DNA of 24,000 nucleotides, from assembly GCA_963746035.1 (NCBI GenBank), contig CAVUZN010000001.1, positions 223,509 to 247,508 of the forward strand. The letters run 5' to 3'. Under the pieces are notes generated by a model, which was given only the letters and a program-made list of their open reading frames with translations, was not told where the DNA came from and did no database searches. Origin of the DNA: an uncultured Verrucomicrobiae bacterium (GTDB lineage Bacteria; Verrucomicrobiota; Verrucomicrobiia; Chthoniobacterales; UBA10450). Below, piece by piece: positions 9,826 to 14,453 of the stretch. The translations under genes and the position numbers were made by a program. Position 1 is the stretch's first letter, and each line of letters opens with the position of its first letter.

Positions 9826-10326
9826 CTACTCGATCGGATATTCGACGCGCTCTTCTTCTTCCGGCTTTACCAGTTTGTTGCGCTCGATGATGCGCGCGCA
9901 GGTGTTCCAGCGCAGAAGAGCGTCGTCGTTGCCGGGTGGACGAACCTTTTCGGCTTTCTCGAACCAGTTCATCGCTTCCTGGAAGAAGTCGAAGGCGTGA
10001 TGGCGTGAGCCCGGCGTGTTCTGGGACAACTTCACCTTAGCCCGGCGCTCGGCGACAATCCCACTGTAGTAGCAGCGCTCGTATTCGCTGGTGATTCGAC
10101 CTAACAATTCCCGCGCTTCCGTCTCGCTGACACCGTAGCCCTTGGAGAAACGGTCAGTGACGGCGAGAAGCAGGGAGACGACGGCTTCTTGGTTATCTGG
10201 ATCTGCTTTCAGCACATCCAGGCAAATGCTTTCGGCTTCGGCCGGTTCATTCAAAAGCCGGTAACGCATCGCCTTCTCCAGCGCGGCCGGAATGGCTTCT
10301 TTTGATAGCGGCTTCAGGTCGGGCAT
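9826..10326 (-). CDS. Conserved hypothetical protein, helical/TPR-like
   Basis: 166-aa ORF with good codon bias, co-directional with and immediately downstream of the sdh cluster. The helical repeat-like N-terminus (AESICLDVLKADPDNQEAVVSLLLA) suggests a TPR-like fold. No catalytic motif recognised. Confidence 0.6.
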   Translation of the reverse strand: MPDLKPLSKEAIPAALEKAMRYRLLNEPAEAESICLDVLKADPDNQEAVVSLLLAVTDRFSKGYGVSETEARELLGRITSEYERCYYSGIVAERRAKVKLSQNTPGSRHHAFDFFQEAMNWFEKAEKVRPPGNDDALLRWNTCARIIERNKLVKPEEEERVEYPIE

Positions 10327-10334
10327 GGTGGTGC

Positions 10335-10440
10335 GTTGAAGCGATGAACAGTTAAAGCGTTAAAGCGAATCAAATCAATCAGCATCGTGGCGGCGGATCG
10401 TTCTTCGGCGAGCACGCTTCAACCCTGCAACGCTCCAACC
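10335..10440. repeat. Degenerate inverted-repeat hairpin element built from GTTRAARCG sub-repeats (cargo-less copy)
   Basis: Left arm 10335-10367: GTTGAAGCG ATGAACA GTTAAAGCG TTAAAGCG. Right arm 10415-10440: CGCTTCAACCCTGCAACGCTCCAACC. About 17/26 positions are complementary. The right arm overlaps the last codons and stop of sdhB (..GALQG*). Confidence 0.65.
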
Positions 10441-11195
10441 CATTTCCGTGCCTTTTTCCAAATCCAGCCCAGGGGATCGTAGAACTCGTCCACCACCCGT
10501 TCTTTCAAGGGAATGATCCCATTGTCGGTGATGTGAATTTCCTCCGGGCAGACTTTGCTGCAGCACTTGGTGATGTTGCAGTAGCCGATGCCGTGAGCAT
10601 TGCGCAATTCTTCGATGCGATCCTCGGTGTCGAGCGGATGCATCTCCAGGGCCGCGGCGTAGATCAGGAAGCGCGGCCCAATGAAGCGATCGTGCATCTG
10701 GTGATCGCGCAGGACGTGGCACACGTCCTGGCAAAGGAAACACTCGATGCACTTTCGAAACTCCTGCACGCGGTCAATGTCTTGCTGCTGCATCCGCCAG
10801 GTTCCATCGGGCGCGTCCGGCGGGCGCGGTTTGAATTTCTTGATCCGCTTCTTCACCTCGAAGTTCCACGAAACATCGGTGATCAAATCCTTGAGCAAGG
10901 GAAACGCCTTCAACGGCTGAATCGTGATGGGGGTGTCCAGCGGCAGGTCACTCATCCGGGTCATGCACATCAGCTTCGGCATGCCGTTAACCTCGGCGGA
11001 GCATGACCCGCATTTGCCGGCCTTGCAGTTCCAGCGGCAGGCCAGGTCGTTAGCGTGATCGCGCTGGATGTCGTGCACCGCATCGAGGACGACCATGCCT
11101 TCGGAGCATTCGGTGGTGTATTCGCGGAATTCGCCGCCGGTGGAATCCCCCCGGAAAATTCGGAAAACTGCCGTTTTTACCGTTGAAGTGTTCAA
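10419..11195 (-). CDS. sdhB: Succinate dehydrogenase / fumarate reductase iron-sulfur subunit
   Basis: Three Cys clusters: CRWNCKAGKCGSCSAEVNG...C (2Fe-2S), CIECFLCQDVC (4Fe-4S), CNITKCCSKVCP (3Fe-4S). TTG start at 11195 is the only start codon upstream of the conserved N-terminus. It overlaps the upstream stop by 4 nt (TTGA). Confidence 0.92.
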   Translation of the reverse strand: MNTSTVKTAVFRIFRGDSTGGEFREYTTECSEGMVVLDAVHDIQRDHANDLACRWNCKAGKCGSCSAEVNGMPKLMCMTRMSDLPLDTPITIQPLKAFPLLKDLITDVSWNFEVKKRIKKFKPRPPDAPDGTWRMQQQDIDRVQEFRKCIECFLCQDVCHVLRDHQMHDRFIGPRFLIYAAALEMHPLDTEDRIEELRNAHGIGYCNITKCCSKVCPEEIHITDNGIIPLKERVVDEFYDPLGWIWKKARKWVGALQG

Positions 11196-11214
11196 GGGTT
11201 GAAGCGTTGAAGCG
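11182..11214. repeat. 3'-side arm (mRNA sense) of the inverted repeat bracketing the four-helix-bundle gene
   Basis: GTTGAAGTG TTCAAGG GTTGAAGCG TTGAAGCG. Positions 11194-11214 are the reverse complement of 11672-11692 at 19/21 positions. Confidence 0.8.
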
Positions 11215-11671
11215 TTTCACCGGGAGCGAGAATCTCGGTGCAGTCTTCTTCGTTATCGCCTTCGCGGACGCGCTTATCAGAATTAATTCTGCCGCGAAGG
11301 AAACGGATGTAACCGTTTAAGACCTGGTGAACACGCCATCCTTGAACCTTAAGGTCGGCCAGTTGGGCGGCCGTTTCGTATTCCTCGTCTTCGCAGACAT
11401 TGAGGTCATCGCTCAGCTCTTCAAGCGATCCGCGAGCTTGCAGGTTAAATCTGATCTGATCGGGATAATGATACCGGCCGTGCCCCTCCGCGATATTGTT
11501 AGTCAATGAGACCGCAGCTCTTCGAATTTGGCCGGCTAGACCGAACTTTTCTTCCACGGGGAGAATCTTCGCCACTTTGTACATGGCTTTCCTGAATTCG
11601 CGCGCGACTTGATACGCCTCCAAGTCTTCGAAAGTTCGGTAACGTTGATCTTCAGAGTCGGTCTTCTTCAT
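11192..11671 (-). CDS. Four-helix-bundle protein (23S rRNA intervening-sequence protein / Avd-like family)
   Basis: Family-typical helices: LEAYQVAREFRKAMYKV, EEKFGLAGQIRRAAVSLTNNIAEGHGR, LQARGSLEELSDDL. At 159 aa it is longer than the usual ~120 aa because of N- and C-terminal extensions. The C-terminal ..ETLQRFNP* is encoded by the repeat arm. Confidence 0.85.
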   Translation of the reverse strand: MKKTDSEDQRYRTFEDLEAYQVAREFRKAMYKVAKILPVEEKFGLAGQIRRAAVSLTNNIAEGHGRYHYPDQIRFNLQARGSLEELSDDLNVCEDEEYETAAQLADLKVQGWRVHQVLNGYIRFLRGRINSDKRVREGDNEEDCTEILAPGETLQRFNP

Positions 11672-11707
11672 CGCTTTAACGTTTCAACCCTTCATCGGTT
11701 TAACGAC
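11672..11707. repeat. 5'-side arm (mRNA sense) of the inverted repeat bracketing the four-helix-bundle gene
   Basis: CGCTTTAACGTTTCAACCCTTCATCGGTTTAACGAC fills almost the whole sdhA-stop to ATG spacer and abuts the ATG at 11669-11671. Confidence 0.8.
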
Positions 11708-11712
11708 GGCTC

Positions 11713-13524
11713 TCATCCCATCTCCTCGATCACCTGCTTCAGATACTCCGGCATTTCCGGCAGCGGCTCCAAACGAATCCGCATCGAGCCATCCGGCGCT
11801 TTGCCGACGATCGTGTTCACTTTTGAAAACCGCTCCTCCTTCGCCGGGTAATCATCGCGAAACTGGGCGCCGCGGCTTTCCTTGCGCTCGATTGCGGCGC
11901 GCGTGATTGCCTCCGACACGATGAGCAGATTTTTGAGATCGATCGCGGTGTGCCAGCCCGGATTGAATTCACGGTGACCGATGACGCCGACCGCGCGTGT
12001 CCGTTGCCAGAGCTTTTGGAGTTCGCTCAAGGCCGTCTGCATCTCATTTTCAGTTCGGACGATGCCGACGTTGTCCTGCATCATCTCCTGAAGATCTTTT
12101 TGGACCTGGTAAGGATTTTCTCCGTCACTGCGTTCGAAGGGCGTCAGGGCGTCTTTGCCAGCGTGCTCGATTTGAGCGGGATCGATCGCTCCATGCGCGT
12201 TTTCTTTTGCGAACTTCGCGGCGAATTCGCCGGCGCGTTTTCCGAAAACAATAATGTCCGACAGCGAATTTCCTCCAAGCCGGTTGGCGCCATTGATTCC
12301 GGCTGCGCATTCGCCGGCCGCGAACAGCCCCGGTATGCGCGACATCTGCGTTTCGGGATGCACATGAATTCCGCCCATCGCGTAATGCGTTGTCGGACCG
12401 ACCTCCATCGGTTGCTCCGTGATATCTATGTCAGCTAGCTGCTTGAACTGGTGATACATGCTGGGCAGCTTCCGTTTGATGTGTTCGGATGCGTTCGGGA
12501 GCTTCTCTTTGATCCAGGCGATGTCCAAATAGACGCCACCGTGGGGCGATCCCCTGCCCTCTTTGATTTCGCGCACGATGCAACGGGCGACGTGATCGCG
12601 GGTCAATAGTTCAGGCGGACGCCGCGCGTTCTTATCGCCCTGGCAGTAGCGCCACCCTTCCTCCGCATTGTCCGCGGTTTGTGCGCGGTAATTGTCCGGA
12701 ATCGACTCGAACATGAAGCGTTTGCCTTCTTTGTTAGTCAGGATCCCGCCCTCACCACGCACGCCTTCCGTCACCAAGATGCCACAGACGCTGGGCGGCC
12801 AGACCATCCCGGTGGGATGAAATTGGACAAACTCCATGTCGATCAGCTCGGCACCGGCTTCATAGGCAAGCGCGACGCCGTCACCGGTCGATTCCCAACT
12901 GTTGCTCGTAATCTTGTAGGCGCGACCGAGACCGCCGGTGGCGAGCACAACAGCTTTCGCCCGGAAAATTTTGAAACGGCCGCGCTCGCGTTCGTAACTA
13001 AATGCACCGGCAATCCGCTCGCCGTCCTTAAGCAGCGTGAGGACCGTGTGCTCCATGAACACTTCAATTCCCTGATGGATTCCGTGATCCTGTAAGGTGC
13101 GGATCATCTCCAGCCCGGTGCGATCGCCCACGTGAGCGAGGCGCGGATAACGATGGCCGCCAAAATTGCGCTGCAGAATCTTGCCGTCCTTGGTGCGGTC
13201 AAAGACGGCGCCCCACGCTTCCAGTTCACGCACACGATCGGGCGCTTCTTTGGCGTGCAACTCGGCCATGCGCCATTGATTCACGTACTGGCCACCGCGC
13301 ATGGTATCGGCGAAATGGACTTTCCAGTTGTCGCGATCGTCAACGTTCGCGAGCGCGGCGGCGATACCGCCTTCGGCCATGACTGTATGCGCCTTGCCGA
13401 GAAGTGATTTACAGATCAGGCCTACCGAAACCCCTGCCGTCGACGCTTCGATCGCCGCCCTCAATCCCGCTCCACCTGCGCCGATAATCAGGACATCGAA
13501 GGTGTGAGTTTGGTAGTCAGGCAT
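11713..13524 (-). CDS. sdhA: Succinate dehydrogenase / fumarate reductase flavoprotein subunit
   Basis: FAD fold DVLIIGAGGAGLRAA, covalent-FAD histidine context KAHTVMAEGG, FVQFHPTG, GANRLGGNSL. Confidence 0.95.
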   Translation of the reverse strand: MPDYQTHTFDVLIIGAGGAGLRAAIEASTAGVSVGLICKSLLGKAHTVMAEGGIAAALANVDDRDNWKVHFADTMRGGQYVNQWRMAELHAKEAPDRVRELEAWGAVFDRTKDGKILQRNFGGHRYPRLAHVGDRTGLEMIRTLQDHGIHQGIEVFMEHTVLTLLKDGERIAGAFSYERERGRFKIFRAKAVVLATGGLGRAYKITSNSWESTGDGVALAYEAGAELIDMEFVQFHPTGMVWPPSVCGILVTEGVRGEGGILTNKEGKRFMFESIPDNYRAQTADNAEEGWRYCQGDKNARRPPELLTRDHVARCIVREIKEGRGSPHGGVYLDIAWIKEKLPNASEHIKRKLPSMYHQFKQLADIDITEQPMEVGPTTHYAMGGIHVHPETQMSRIPGLFAAGECAAGINGANRLGGNSLSDIIVFGKRAGEFAAKFAKENAHGAIDPAQIEHAGKDALTPFERSDGENPYQVQKDLQEMMQDNVGIVRTENEMQTALSELQKLWQRTRAVGVIGHREFNPGWHTAIDLKNLLIVSEAITRAAIERKESRGAQFRDDYPAKEERFSKVNTIVGKAPDGSMRIRLEPLPEMPEYLKQVIEEMG

Positions 13525-13542
13525 TGTTGCGGAAAGAGGGCC

Positions 13543-13643
13543 GTTAAAGCGTTGAAAGGTTAAAACGTTGAAACGTTAGGGAGTCGGCCACTCGCATCAG
13601 AAATTCTTTCGCTTCATCGTTTTAACGATTAAACCCTTCAACC
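13543..13643. repeat. Inverted-repeat hairpin element of GTTRAARCG sub-repeats (cargo-less copy) in the sdhC-sdhA spacer
   Basis: Left arm 13543-13575: GTTAAAGCGTTGAAAGGTTAAAACGTTGAAACG. Right arm 13610-13643: CGCTTCATCGTTTTAACGATTAAACCCTTCAACC. 26/33 positions are complementary. About 34 nt (13576-13609) separate the aligned arms. Confidence 0.75.
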
Positions 13644-13646
13644 TCG

Positions 13647-14453
13647 TCATAAGAGCCGCCAGTCATGCCAGACGCCCATCGAACAGAGGCGAACGTAGAG
13701 ATCCGTGAAGCCAACCCAGATCAAGCTCATCCAGGCCCAGAGCATGTGGCGGCGATTAAAACAGCTGACGCAGGCATAGGCTCCGGCGCAGGGCGGCGCT
13801 TTGGAAAACTGGTCGAGGAACCCGCCGACAAGGTGACGCAGCGAATGACAGCCCAGGGTGTAGCCGCCGAGGAAGACGACGTTAGCGCAAAGCACGATCG
13901 TGCCGAGCCCCAGACCTAACGAGCTACGTTCCGTGCCAGGATCAGCAAACCAGAACGCTTTCCAGGCGTCATAGGCCAGGATGAGGAGAAAGATGAGGGC
14001 GAGGTAAAGGAAGTAGCGGTGAACGTTTTGCAGAATGAGGGGGAAGTGACGCTCACCGAGATAGCTTTTGCGCGGCTCACCCACGGTGCAGGCCGGTGGA
14101 TCGGCCCAGAACGCCTTGTAGTACGCTCCTCTGTAGTAGTAACAGGTGAGCCGGAAGCCGCCCGGCGCCCAGAGGATGAGCAATGCGGGAGAAAAGAAAA
14201 GCCAGGCGGGCCACCACGTCGGCTTTGGGCCGAACCAGGCGTGCGGCGAATCACCGAAAAGTTCGGGCGAATAAAAGGGCGAGATGTAATTGCCGAAATG
14301 ATAATGCGCGCCCTGGAAGGCGGCCCAGGTCGAGTAAACAATGAATGTGGCGAAACCGAGAAAAACGACGAGCGGCTGCGCCCACCACGCATCGCGGCGC
14401 ATGGTCGCGCCAAACGATCGTTGCGGAAGAGCTGCCGTGCTCGCGCCGTTCAT
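13647..14453 (-). CDS. Putative succinate dehydrogenase membrane anchor / cytochrome b-like subunit
   Basis: Polytopic hydrophobic 268-aa protein with several conserved-looking His (HYHFGNY, NVHRYF, GCHSLRHL) directly upstream of sdhA-sdhB. Assignment is mainly by operon position and topology. Start could be M1 (14453) or M18. Confidence 0.6.
   Translation of the reverse strand: MNGASTAALPQRSFGATMRRDAWWAQPLVVFLGFATFIVYSTWAAFQGAHYHFGNYISPFYSPELFGDSPHAWFGPKPTWWPAWLFFSPALLILWAPGGFRLTCYYYRGAYYKAFWADPPACTVGEPRKSYLGERHFPLILQNVHRYFLYLALIFLLILAYDAWKAFWFADPGTERSSLGLGLGTIVLCANVVFLGGYTLGCHSLRHLVGGFLDQFSKAPPCAGAYACVSCFNRRHMLWAWMSLIWVGFTDLYVRLCSMGVWHDWRLL

Follow-up and report, generated by a model that had tools for sequence, protein, structure and literature searches.

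Some bacteria carry open reading frames (ORFs) inside intervening sequences (IVSs) of their 23S rRNA, as described for Leptospira, Coxiella, Xanthomonas and Brucella (Ralph & McClelland 1993; PMC4990558). In Coxiella, a 28-bp terminal stem encloses the S23p ORF and is cut by RNase III (PMC4990558). Here we describe elements of comparable anatomy in the sdh operon of an uncultured Verrucomicrobiae bacterium of the UBA10450 lineage. The analysed stretch comprises 24,000 nucleotides (contig CAVUZN010000001.1, positions 223,509 to 247,508) and is referred to as the window; its own numbering is used throughout. The operon lies on the minus strand, as do all features listed below, in the order sdhC-like, sdhA, a four-helix-bundle (4HB) gene, sdhB and a gene for a 166-aa protein. 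Three of its junctions carry facing arms of short tandem repeats, and one pair of arms encloses the 4HB gene. Since the filled element has the anatomy of an IVS and the dispersed copies of its arms match repeats of the TAACTGA/STRR kind, we lean towards assigning the elements of the sdh junctions to a single family of hairpins built from short tandem repeats, which occur with or without a promoterless 4HB passenger and may take part in an RNA relay and in processing.

Several further systems offer partial parallels. The hairpins that RNase III acts on in the early mRNA of phage T7 and the REP stabilisers such as that of malE-malF are intercistronic stem-loops that set the processing and stability of transcript segments, a function shown experimentally. 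The sdh hairpins likewise lie between cistrons of one presumed transcript, but the T7 and malE-malF stems are of unique sequence and hold no gene in the loop, whereas the arms described here are built of tandem repeats. Rickettsia palindromic elements (RPEs), reportedly described by Ogata et al. in 2000, are also palindromic repeats translated as part of host proteins; RPEs, however, insert in frame inside genes, while at sdh only terminal codons and stop or start codons come from the repeat. The present family resembles REP, BIME and REPIN sequences in its short imperfect extragenic palindromes, often situated in operons, and in a gene between inverted copies, and it may resemble them in copy number, with many loci in many Verrucomicrobial genomes and probably hundreds of copies per genome. 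It differs from them in lacking a GTAG or CGTC tag, in the internal tandem repetition of its arms, in the strict placement relative to start codons, and in the flanked gene, which encodes a small helical bundle and no nuclease or transposase fold. Heptamer arrays named STRR were reportedly found in cyanobacteria by Mazel et al. in 1990. Direct repeats of the heptamer TAACTGA precede start codons in Beggiatoaceae, Cyanobacteria and Bacteroidetes (MacGregor 2015, PMC4679880).

Inverted arms of tandem octamers at the sdh junctions

Each of the six arms consists of three to four head-to-tail 8-nt units, which read GTTRAARS or, on the opposite strand, SYTTYAAC. We refer to the 5' arm of each pair in the mRNA as the G-arm and to the 3' arm as the C-arm. 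The motif GTTRAARCG occurs 13 times in the window versus 1.0 expected (13 occurrences were reached in 0 of 100 shuffles), and 12 of the 13 matches are inside the three sdh junctions. The two-unit pattern GTTRAARSGTTRAA (at most 2 mismatches) is found 20 times versus 0.99 expected, 19 times within the six arms. Enrichment and arm alignment together confirm the original prediction, made from this sequence alone, of three junctions with facing sub-repeat arms. That prediction also allowed that the likeness of the arms might be no better than expected for low-complexity sequence. Units that are short and of mixed A/T and G/C content, with about 20% of arm positions differing, could invite this explanation. 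Its probability is practically nil, and we regard chance similarity as excluded: the enrichment is 13-20 fold, no shuffle equals the observed count, more than 70 related loci retain the arms, and the family is present at unrelated loci of many genomes.

The filled element lies between sdhA and sdhB. Its G-arm (11672-11705; GTTAAACC GATGAAGG GTTGAAAC GTTAAAGC G) starts 7 nt 3' of the sdhA stop and ends directly at the ATG of the 4HB gene (11192-11671, 159 aa), which forms the cargo. The C-arm (11182-11214) encodes the end of the 4HB protein, ..LQRFNP, with its TGA (11192-11194), and contains an overlapping TTG start of sdhB (11195). The two other elements are empty. At sdhC/sdhA, a G-arm (13610-13642; GTTGAAGG GTTTAATC GTTAAAAC GATGAAGC G) and a C-arm (13543-13575) are separated by a 34-nt loop (13576-13609); the ATG of the last G-arm unit opens a 6-codon ORF only (MKRKNF*), and 18 nt separate the end of the C-arm from the sdhA ATG (13524). 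At sdhB/next gene, the G-arm (10415-10440; GTTGGAGC GTTGCAGG GTTGAAGC G) is followed by a 47-nt loop (10368-10414) and a C-arm (10335-10367) that ends 8 nt before the next ATG (10326).

Recomputed complementarity amounts to 26/33 positions at sdhC/sdhA (13543-13575 versus 13610-13642), 26/33 at sdhA/sdhB (11182-11214 versus 11672-11705) and 20/33 Watson-Crick pairs at sdhB/next (10335-10367 versus 10415-10447), in line with the values first proposed, of which the third was about 17/26. When the minus strand is folded as RNA, arm pairs with arm in both short elements, with energies of -32.1 kcal/mol (z -2.2) for one and -43.2 kcal/mol (z -3.3) for the other. The sdhB/next element is far weaker when folded as the plus strand (-29.8 kcal/mol, z +0.6), which indicates a large share of G-U pairs in its sense RNA. 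Folding of the entire 542-nt cassette gives a minimum-energy structure in which the arm ahead of the 4HB ATG pairs with the one at the 4HB stop.

The 4HB protein matches Pfam PF05635 (E=3.6e-26) and TIGR02436 (E=1.4e-23, above cut-off) and is related to PDB 2GSC (E=2e-15). Its public gene call (P0001) begins at an internal Met and yields 130 aa. As homologues cover the full 159 residues in alignments, this call misses the first 29 codons. As proposed earlier, the arms are partly translated, and the translations bear out repeat-encoded C-termini of both the 4HB protein (..ETLQRFNP*) and SdhB (..VGALQG*, encoded with its TGA by the G-arm at 10415-10440). Relatives lack this SdhB tail and end in ..KKKFD* or ..KLNR*. 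Arms encode both ends of the iron-sulfur subunit gene sdhB (10419-11195, 258 aa; Pfam Fer2_3 and Fer4_8), namely ~5 codons at its start, and 6 codons and the stop at its end. The sdhB ATG of relatives (..CAACGAATGAAAAC..) has been lost in the window, where positions 11171-11195 read ..CAACGGTAAAAAC.., leaving the TTG at 11195, inside the arm and overlapping the 4HB TGA, as the only in-frame start. This start adds ~5 N-terminal residues, and the NCBIfam PRK12386 alignment begins at residue 7. A plus-strand ORF also reads through the repeat, as first noted; the plus strand is HRFNVSTLHRFND across 11666-11707.

In comparison with 23S IVSs, the sdh cassette shares the size range (~430-760 nt), a PF05635/S23p ORF closed by complementary ends with a stem of ~25-30 bp (here without covariation), residence in an essential, highly transcribed unit, a sporadic distribution and the existence of short ORF-less versions. 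It differs in its host, which is a protein-coding operon (sdh here; cys, pgl, xdh and nuo-like operons in relatives) and not helix 25 or 45 of 23S rRNA, and in its arms, tandem 7-9-nt units that supply stop and start codons to the neighbours. Excision by RNase III has been shown for IVSs, whereas for the sdh cassette it would be an expectation by analogy. An Rfam scan of the whole window at gathering thresholds returned no family and no rRNA. Sigma-70-like and intrinsic-terminator-like sites in the window coincide with none of the arms, and we therefore dropped the idea that four-unit arrays serve as -35/-10 pairs of leaderless mRNAs.

Filled, empty and absent states in related sdh operons

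The closest 4HB homologues (59-73% identity over the best segment) start with MKR and end in ..RFNPSSL or ..RFNPSTLQRFDE, and both termini are translated repeat units. Their contigs are syntenic sdh operons. Among 80 related metagenome loci, 77 have the order sdhA-4HB-sdhB, and three (L230, L234 and L250) carry the 4HB gene between sdhB and the gene for the 166-aa protein; in L250, sdhA and sdhB abut directly. The 4HB proteins of these three loci nest within the sdhA/sdhB clade, which makes this a single relocation of the same 4HB gene.

The repeat units and the coding signals of relatives coincide in a regular manner. The sdhA stop (TAA or TGA) falls on the R position of the first G-arm unit and the 4HB ATG on the fourth unit (GATGAAGCG). 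The C-arm reads CGCTTCAAC CCTTCATC GCTTYAAC NCTTCAAC, and the 4HB gene stops either at the TAA of the third C-arm unit or, in many relatives, at a TGA overlapping the sdhB ATG (ATGA). A distinctive unit, GATGAAGG, occupies the mirror position of CCTTCATC. Compared with relatives the window has one extra unit on both arms, with the mirror order preserved.

The outer junctions are more variable. In relatives, the sdhC/sdhA junction appears as 12 hairpins, two junctions without spacer, a few degenerate arrays and two junctions with other cargo. The other cargo consists of a PEMT-family methyltransferase gene (E=8e-15) in L206 (163-669) and of a two-gene pair, the second product weakly YafQ-like (below the family cut-off), in L213 (223-682); neither has recognisable arms. 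At sdhB/next, we found 21 hairpins, 12 junctions with G-arrays only and seven without element, and two distinct junctions filled with the 4HB gene (L230/L234, which are duplicates, and L250). An apparent 858-nt gap in L226 was considered as a second 4HB copy and rejected, the junction being an ordinary hairpin. The statement that the elements occupy each of the operon's junctions is valid just for this genome, the outer junctions of relatives ranging from no spacer to a hairpin. The notion of filled and empty sites is upheld by the relatives: the sdhB/next site, empty in the window, can lack the element in them, form a hairpin or contain a 4HB gene of the same lineage.

At a single junction, different relatives have units of the flavours GTTGAAGC, GTTACAAA or GAATCGTG, and both arms switch together. 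Mini-ORFs of 12-23 codons run from G-arm to C-arm in 22 of 42 distinct empty hairpins (12-22 codons in the sdhC/sdhA loops of relatives). They start with MK(R) at a GATGAAGCG unit, 3-20 nt past the upstream stop, and they use as stop the TAA within a CTTTAAC unit, which leaves 10-31 nt to the following ATG (for example MKRDALKRSEFSRTYASTL and MKRLLRETFSALTL). These start and stop contexts are those of the 4HB ORF. Another dispersed palindromic repeat (gtcattctgagcgRagcgaagaatctc ... gagattcttcgctccgctcagaatgac, ~100 nt) is located inside the sdhB/next hairpin loops of L210, L236 and L260, and it also adjoins arrays at unrelated loci (L076, L091, L124).

The 268-aa membrane protein (13647-14453), with its TGA stop 4 nt before the first arm, is called sdhC-like by position: Pfam and NCBIfam searches matched no model, and in all relatives it is kept upstream of sdhA, at the place of the membrane-anchor subunit. 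The flavoprotein subunit gene sdhA (11713-13524, 603 aa) has the Pfam domains FAD_binding_2 and Succ_DH_flav_C. The 166-aa protein gene (9826-10326) has a weak TPR-like match, below cut-off, and follows sdhB in relatives too.

A dispersed array family with fixed orientation to genes

We scanned one genome per bacterial species (185,579 genomes) for GTTRAARCGTTRAARCGWT and obtained at least 80 loci; the counts in this section refer to the 80 loci among the matches listed. About half are Verrucomicrobiota metagenome-assembled genomes (MAGs; Chthoniobacterales, 'Udaeobacter', Verrucomicrobiae). The family therefore is dispersed through genomes of soil Verrucomicrobiota, where it sits in the gaps separating genes and is found at loci unrelated to sdh, contrary to the possibility, raised with the original prediction, that a genome-wide scan would find the motif in this operon alone. 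Among these matches there is no related sdh locus; the only SdhA/SdhB matches are two, with 25-37% identity, in loci of Coxiella and Photobacterium in which the motif occurs by chance within coding sequence. An array-adjacent 4HB gene is present at one of the 39 Verrucomicrobial loci, and three 4HB genes occur in the 558 kb around motif-selected arrays. 4HB genes thus sit in arrays, yet most arrays have no 4HB gene. We rejected the arrays as specific markers of sdh or 4HB loci, given the absence of a related sdh operon among these matches and the single Verrucomicrobial locus with an adjacent 4HB gene.

Two forms of the array exist at these loci: a single array, or a hairpin composed of G-arm, loop and C-arm. 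Start codons (ATG of an ORF of at least 80 aa) lie within 40 nt downstream of 29 of 71 C-oriented arrays, mostly at 1-24 nt, versus 3 of 71 in the opposite direction and 14% of random positions. By element, a nearby start accompanies 13/14 hairpins and 19/37 single arrays. The order G-arm then C-arm was seen in 24 pairs versus one. With this order fixed, the flanking start codon faces the C-arm and the flanking gene end faces the G-arm. The C-arm usually ends 1-25 nt before the start codon, and the G-arm adjoins the stop codon of the preceding gene or, often, supplies it; three consecutive G-arm units create TGA or TAA in all three frames. No Shine-Dalgarno (SD) sequence was seen between array and ATG in the arrays examined, and SD sequences are rare in the window generally.

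Arrays elsewhere have 2-17 units. The arrays of L109 (4401-4504), with 13 units, and L135 (3153-3302), with 17, repeat GCTTCAAC/GTTGAAGC almost perfectly; in L109 a G-arm of the usual 4 units faces the long C-arm, and an ORF of 796 codons comes after the latter. The units evidently can expand in a minisatellite-like manner. Similar octamer arrays precede ATG codons in MAGs of Anaerolineales, Acidobacteriota, Bacteroidota, Gemmatimonadota and other groups. Arrays of related octamer units (GTTGGAAC, GTTGAAAC, GTTAGAAC, all with AACGTT), often right before an ATG, were noted in MAGs of Anaerolineales, Acidobacteriota, Chloroflexia, Thermoanaerobaculia and further groups (L066, L071, L075, L104, L111, L115, L123, L125 and others). 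Two IMG/VR contigs (L056, 2383-2473; L058, 855-921) contain the search pattern at an exact 24-nt spacing, i.e. three units or 8 codons, and this recurrence may be an in-frame coding repeat.

The placement of the arrays largely corresponds to that of the TAACTGA and STRR repeats. Common features are 2-6 tandem short units, mostly intergenic and scattered over unrelated phyla, that are oriented towards an SD-less start codon, end a few nt from it, may overlap the end of the upstream ORF, and have stops in all three frames in one orientation. The two differ in unit sequence, an octamer SYTTYAAC here, with TAACTGA contained only in the arms of one 4HB locus (L300). They also differ in that inverted, hairpin-forming pairs are common here, while one inverted set was reported for TAACTGA (PMC4679880); in that the stop-rich orientation here is the arm distal to the start codon; and in the 4HB association, absent from PMC4679880.

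These position rules could also mean that function resides in the C-arm array. It would then be a leader, poor in G and unstructured, which acts as ribosome standby or protein-binding site in the translation of genes without SD, the G-arm and hairpin being secondary, e.g. a masking switch. The ends of C-oriented arrays 1-25 nt before start codons, the SD-less gap in a window where SD sequences are rare, the common partnerless C-arrays, the similar octamer arrays before ATG in other phyla and the same placement of TAACTGA repeats, for which a role in translation was suggested (PMC4679880), all agree with such a leader. We consider it quite unlikely, however: arrays accompany only a minority of genes (3 of ~22 in the window), orthologous junctions manage without them, the array ahead of a 4HB gene has the opposite (G) orientation, and 4HB genes between inverted arrays that differ among lineages would be left unaccounted for. 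Pairing to the 3' end of 16S rRNA, or mimicry of the SD-anti-SD interaction, was rejected as a general rule: the Verrucomicrobial unit is not SD-like, and SD-like G-arms (GGGAGTA, AGGTAAG) occur in some other lineages.

Four-helix-bundle genes between inverted arrays at other loci

The association of 4HB genes with flanking arms, put forward in the original prediction, extends to four further Verrucomicrobial contexts. A 4HB gene lies between cysH and cysD in L296, which also has an empty hairpin at cysD/cysN, and between a gene X and pgl in L297-L299; in both, the arms belong to the GTTRAARS family. In L300, the gene separates the small and large subunit genes of xdh, with arms of 9-nt units containing TAACTGA, and in L303 it precedes a nuoC-like gene, with arms of GTTACAA units. 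In all four contexts the 4HB paralog is located between a G-arm and a C-arm, the latter ending 5-15 nt before the next start.

Moreover, unrelated 4HB genes (30-50% identity; L132 and IMG/VR contigs) have inverted arrays of lineage-specific 7-8-nt units: GGGAGTA/TACTCCC, GAGTGGA/TCCACTC, CGTTACA/TGTAACG, AGAAGGC/GCCTTCT, TCGGCNT, GGTACGYG and GTTGATAG/CTATCAAC. A flanking inverted array above a single score threshold was found for 18 of 26 4HB genes versus 1 of 56 control ORFs from the same loci, the former count overstating independent cases because the IMG/VR sample holds groups of related loci. At least 12 distinct repeat units are represented among the sampled 4HB loci. The tails of diverse 4HB representatives resemble translated arrays (..IRFNAFNILTF, ..DYQTTRPPDHQTTRP). 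An exception is the Anaerolineales 4HB gene of L125 (1632-2006), which has a direct repeat (GCTAATTGCTGAAAGCT upstream, GCTAATTACTGAAAGCT past the stop) and an upstream hairpin and no inverted arrays.

A gene flanked by inverted copies of a dispersed repeat is the signature of a protein acting on that repeat, as in RAYT-REP pairs. By this analogy the pentameric 4HB protein might bind the tandem units, one per subunit, as TRAP does with triplet repeats, and so regulate, protect or spread its own cassette, with the dispersed empty arrays as genomic targets. The RAYT-like flanking of 4HB genes and the presence of an own unit sequence for each 4HB lineage would fit such a cognate pair. Arms have 3-5 units and the family is homopentameric (2GSC; PMC4990558), Avd relatives are classed in the same family (PMC10053308), and a repeat-binding protein was proposed as the possible mobile part by MacGregor (PMC4679880). 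Binding of the repeat by the 4HB protein is a proposal only, however, and one locus has 4HB arms (GTTGATAG) unlike those of a hairpin 6 kb away (GTTGAAAC). Several unit flavours coexist in one genome, while the arms of the sdh 4HB gene stay GTTGAAGC, and 4HB genes around motif-selected arrays are as few as the three noted above. We therefore regard a cognate protein-repeat system as very unlikely. A related conception, which we likewise hold to be improbable, is that 4HB (S23p/Avd-like) pentamers and tandem-repeat hairpins might form a two-part selfish system like RAYT/REPINs, in which the protein would recognise the units bracketing its own gene, one per subunit, to maintain, protect or copy the cassette into other hairpins.

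Arm conservation, pairing and a possible mechanism

Mean pairwise identity is 0.89 for the non-coding 5' arm and 0.88 for the 3' arm. Identity of the 4HB ORF by codon position 1/2/3 is 0.87/0.90/0.52, which shows that the gene is under purifying selection. Third codon positions are 0.88 identical inside the 3' arm versus 0.52 in the 4HB ORF. Such conservation of the arms points to nucleotide-level constraint or concerted evolution. In relatives, a register-specific 25-bp helix encloses the ORF, with 91.6% of cells paired versus at most 51% when the arms are slid. Of 54 junction hairpins, 36 fold more stably as sense than as antisense RNA (p=0.004, the sequences being related and non-independent). 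This bias and the preserved mirror order of the units lend weak support to a stem in the RNA.

Building on the observed anatomy, dispersal, position rules, arm conservation, filled, empty and absent states and the generality of 4HB genes between arms, we propose the following scheme. The element would be co-transcribed with the operon, and its arms would pair in the mRNA. Ribosomes might then be relayed by termination and re-initiation, from the stop in the G-arm to the loop ORF or the 4HB ATG, and from the stop in the C-arm, often in an ATGA overlap, to the next start. Passage through the loop would melt the stem, so that translation of the downstream subunits would be maintained. As in rRNA IVSs, the duplex of 25-33 bp probably serves in addition as a site of RNase III processing or of stability control, and cargo probably shifts between filled and empty hairpins via recombination of homologous arms. 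A role as operon-internal processing or stability elements, offered from the start as the alternative to mobile elements, is plausible. We are highly confident of the anatomy and the family assignment taken by themselves; the relay and processing mechanism is tentative, and we judge it somewhat less than evenly likely.

Several observations weigh against the hairpin-family reading with its RNA relay. Among 46 distinct cassettes we found no covariation between arms (91.6% paired versus 91.7% in shuffles), and the covariation score is lower than in 468 of 500 shuffles. A-C mismatches are as common as G-U pairs at variable R/Y sites, and the complementarity could accordingly be a by-product of each arm holding its own consensus. 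The compensatory changes that were to be looked for between arms are thus absent, and pairing potential is kept only via the family consensus of each arm. Single arrays without partner arm and without a start nearby, by the distance used above, make up 18 of 37. Many arrays precede apparent first genes, so a coupling relay cannot account for those arrays. The mini-ORFs of the window itself are degenerate, and the inclusion of related loci inflates the 4HB count given above.

The absence of covariation also speaks for purely selfish DNA. On this view, a transposase with its gene elsewhere (e.g. of RAYT/IS200-type, acting on single-stranded hairpins) would spread the elements at the DNA level as palindromes of the REP/REPIN or MITE kind, start and stop placement would reflect insertion tolerance, and the 4HB gene would be a passenger. 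Dispersed copies in many genomes, the difference between close relatives in presence or absence at one junction, inserts of other kinds in the loops (the second palindromic repeat of L210, L236 and L260) and the growth of arrays to 13-17 units fit this explanation, and both arms switch flavour together (GTTACAAA, GAATCGTG), as expected from whole-element replacement. Nevertheless, we consider it unlikely. Across hosts with ~48% divergence at synonymous sites, the sdh cassette arms are as conserved as non-synonymous sites, and the order of G-arm and C-arm relative to genes is fixed 24 to 1. Transposition of the MITE/REP type, suggested in the original prediction, gained no support: the arm consensus CGTTRAAGCG is without the GTAG or CGTC terminal tag of the REP superfamilies (PMC3733652), no transposase was seen in the loci examined, and no target-site duplication was visible when the absent, empty and filled states of one junction were compared by eye, the parent insertion sequence not having been searched for. 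Overall, we continue to lean towards a family of tandem-repeat hairpins with an optional 4HB passenger, with which a DNA-level palindrome, a C-array leader and a cognate 4HB-repeat system are not mutually exclusive.

Implications for the 4HB family and its hosts

In the literature searched, there is no report of 4HB genes flanked by tandem-repeat arms outside rRNA, nor of this octamer family. PF05635/TIGR02436 proteins are very common (6,688 protein-search matches at E <= 0.001; more than 11,000 clusters in a 50%-identity library), and the PF05635 family has been without an assigned function since its discovery in 23S rRNA IVSs in 1993. The present data place the "ORF closed by a stem" element in ordinary operons, beyond rRNA. 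Its stem is built of lineage-specific short tandem repeats, and the same repeats occur genome-wide as empty hairpins and as single arrays before start codons. The arms donate stops, starts and terminal residues to essential proteins, and gene callers mis-set starts here, as they did for the 4HB gene of the window. If the two-part system were true, it would unite 23S IVSs, repeats of the TAACTGA/STRR type and 4HB genes in housekeeping operons, restriction-modification and CRISPR loci, and it would provide a first function for the 4HB protein family.

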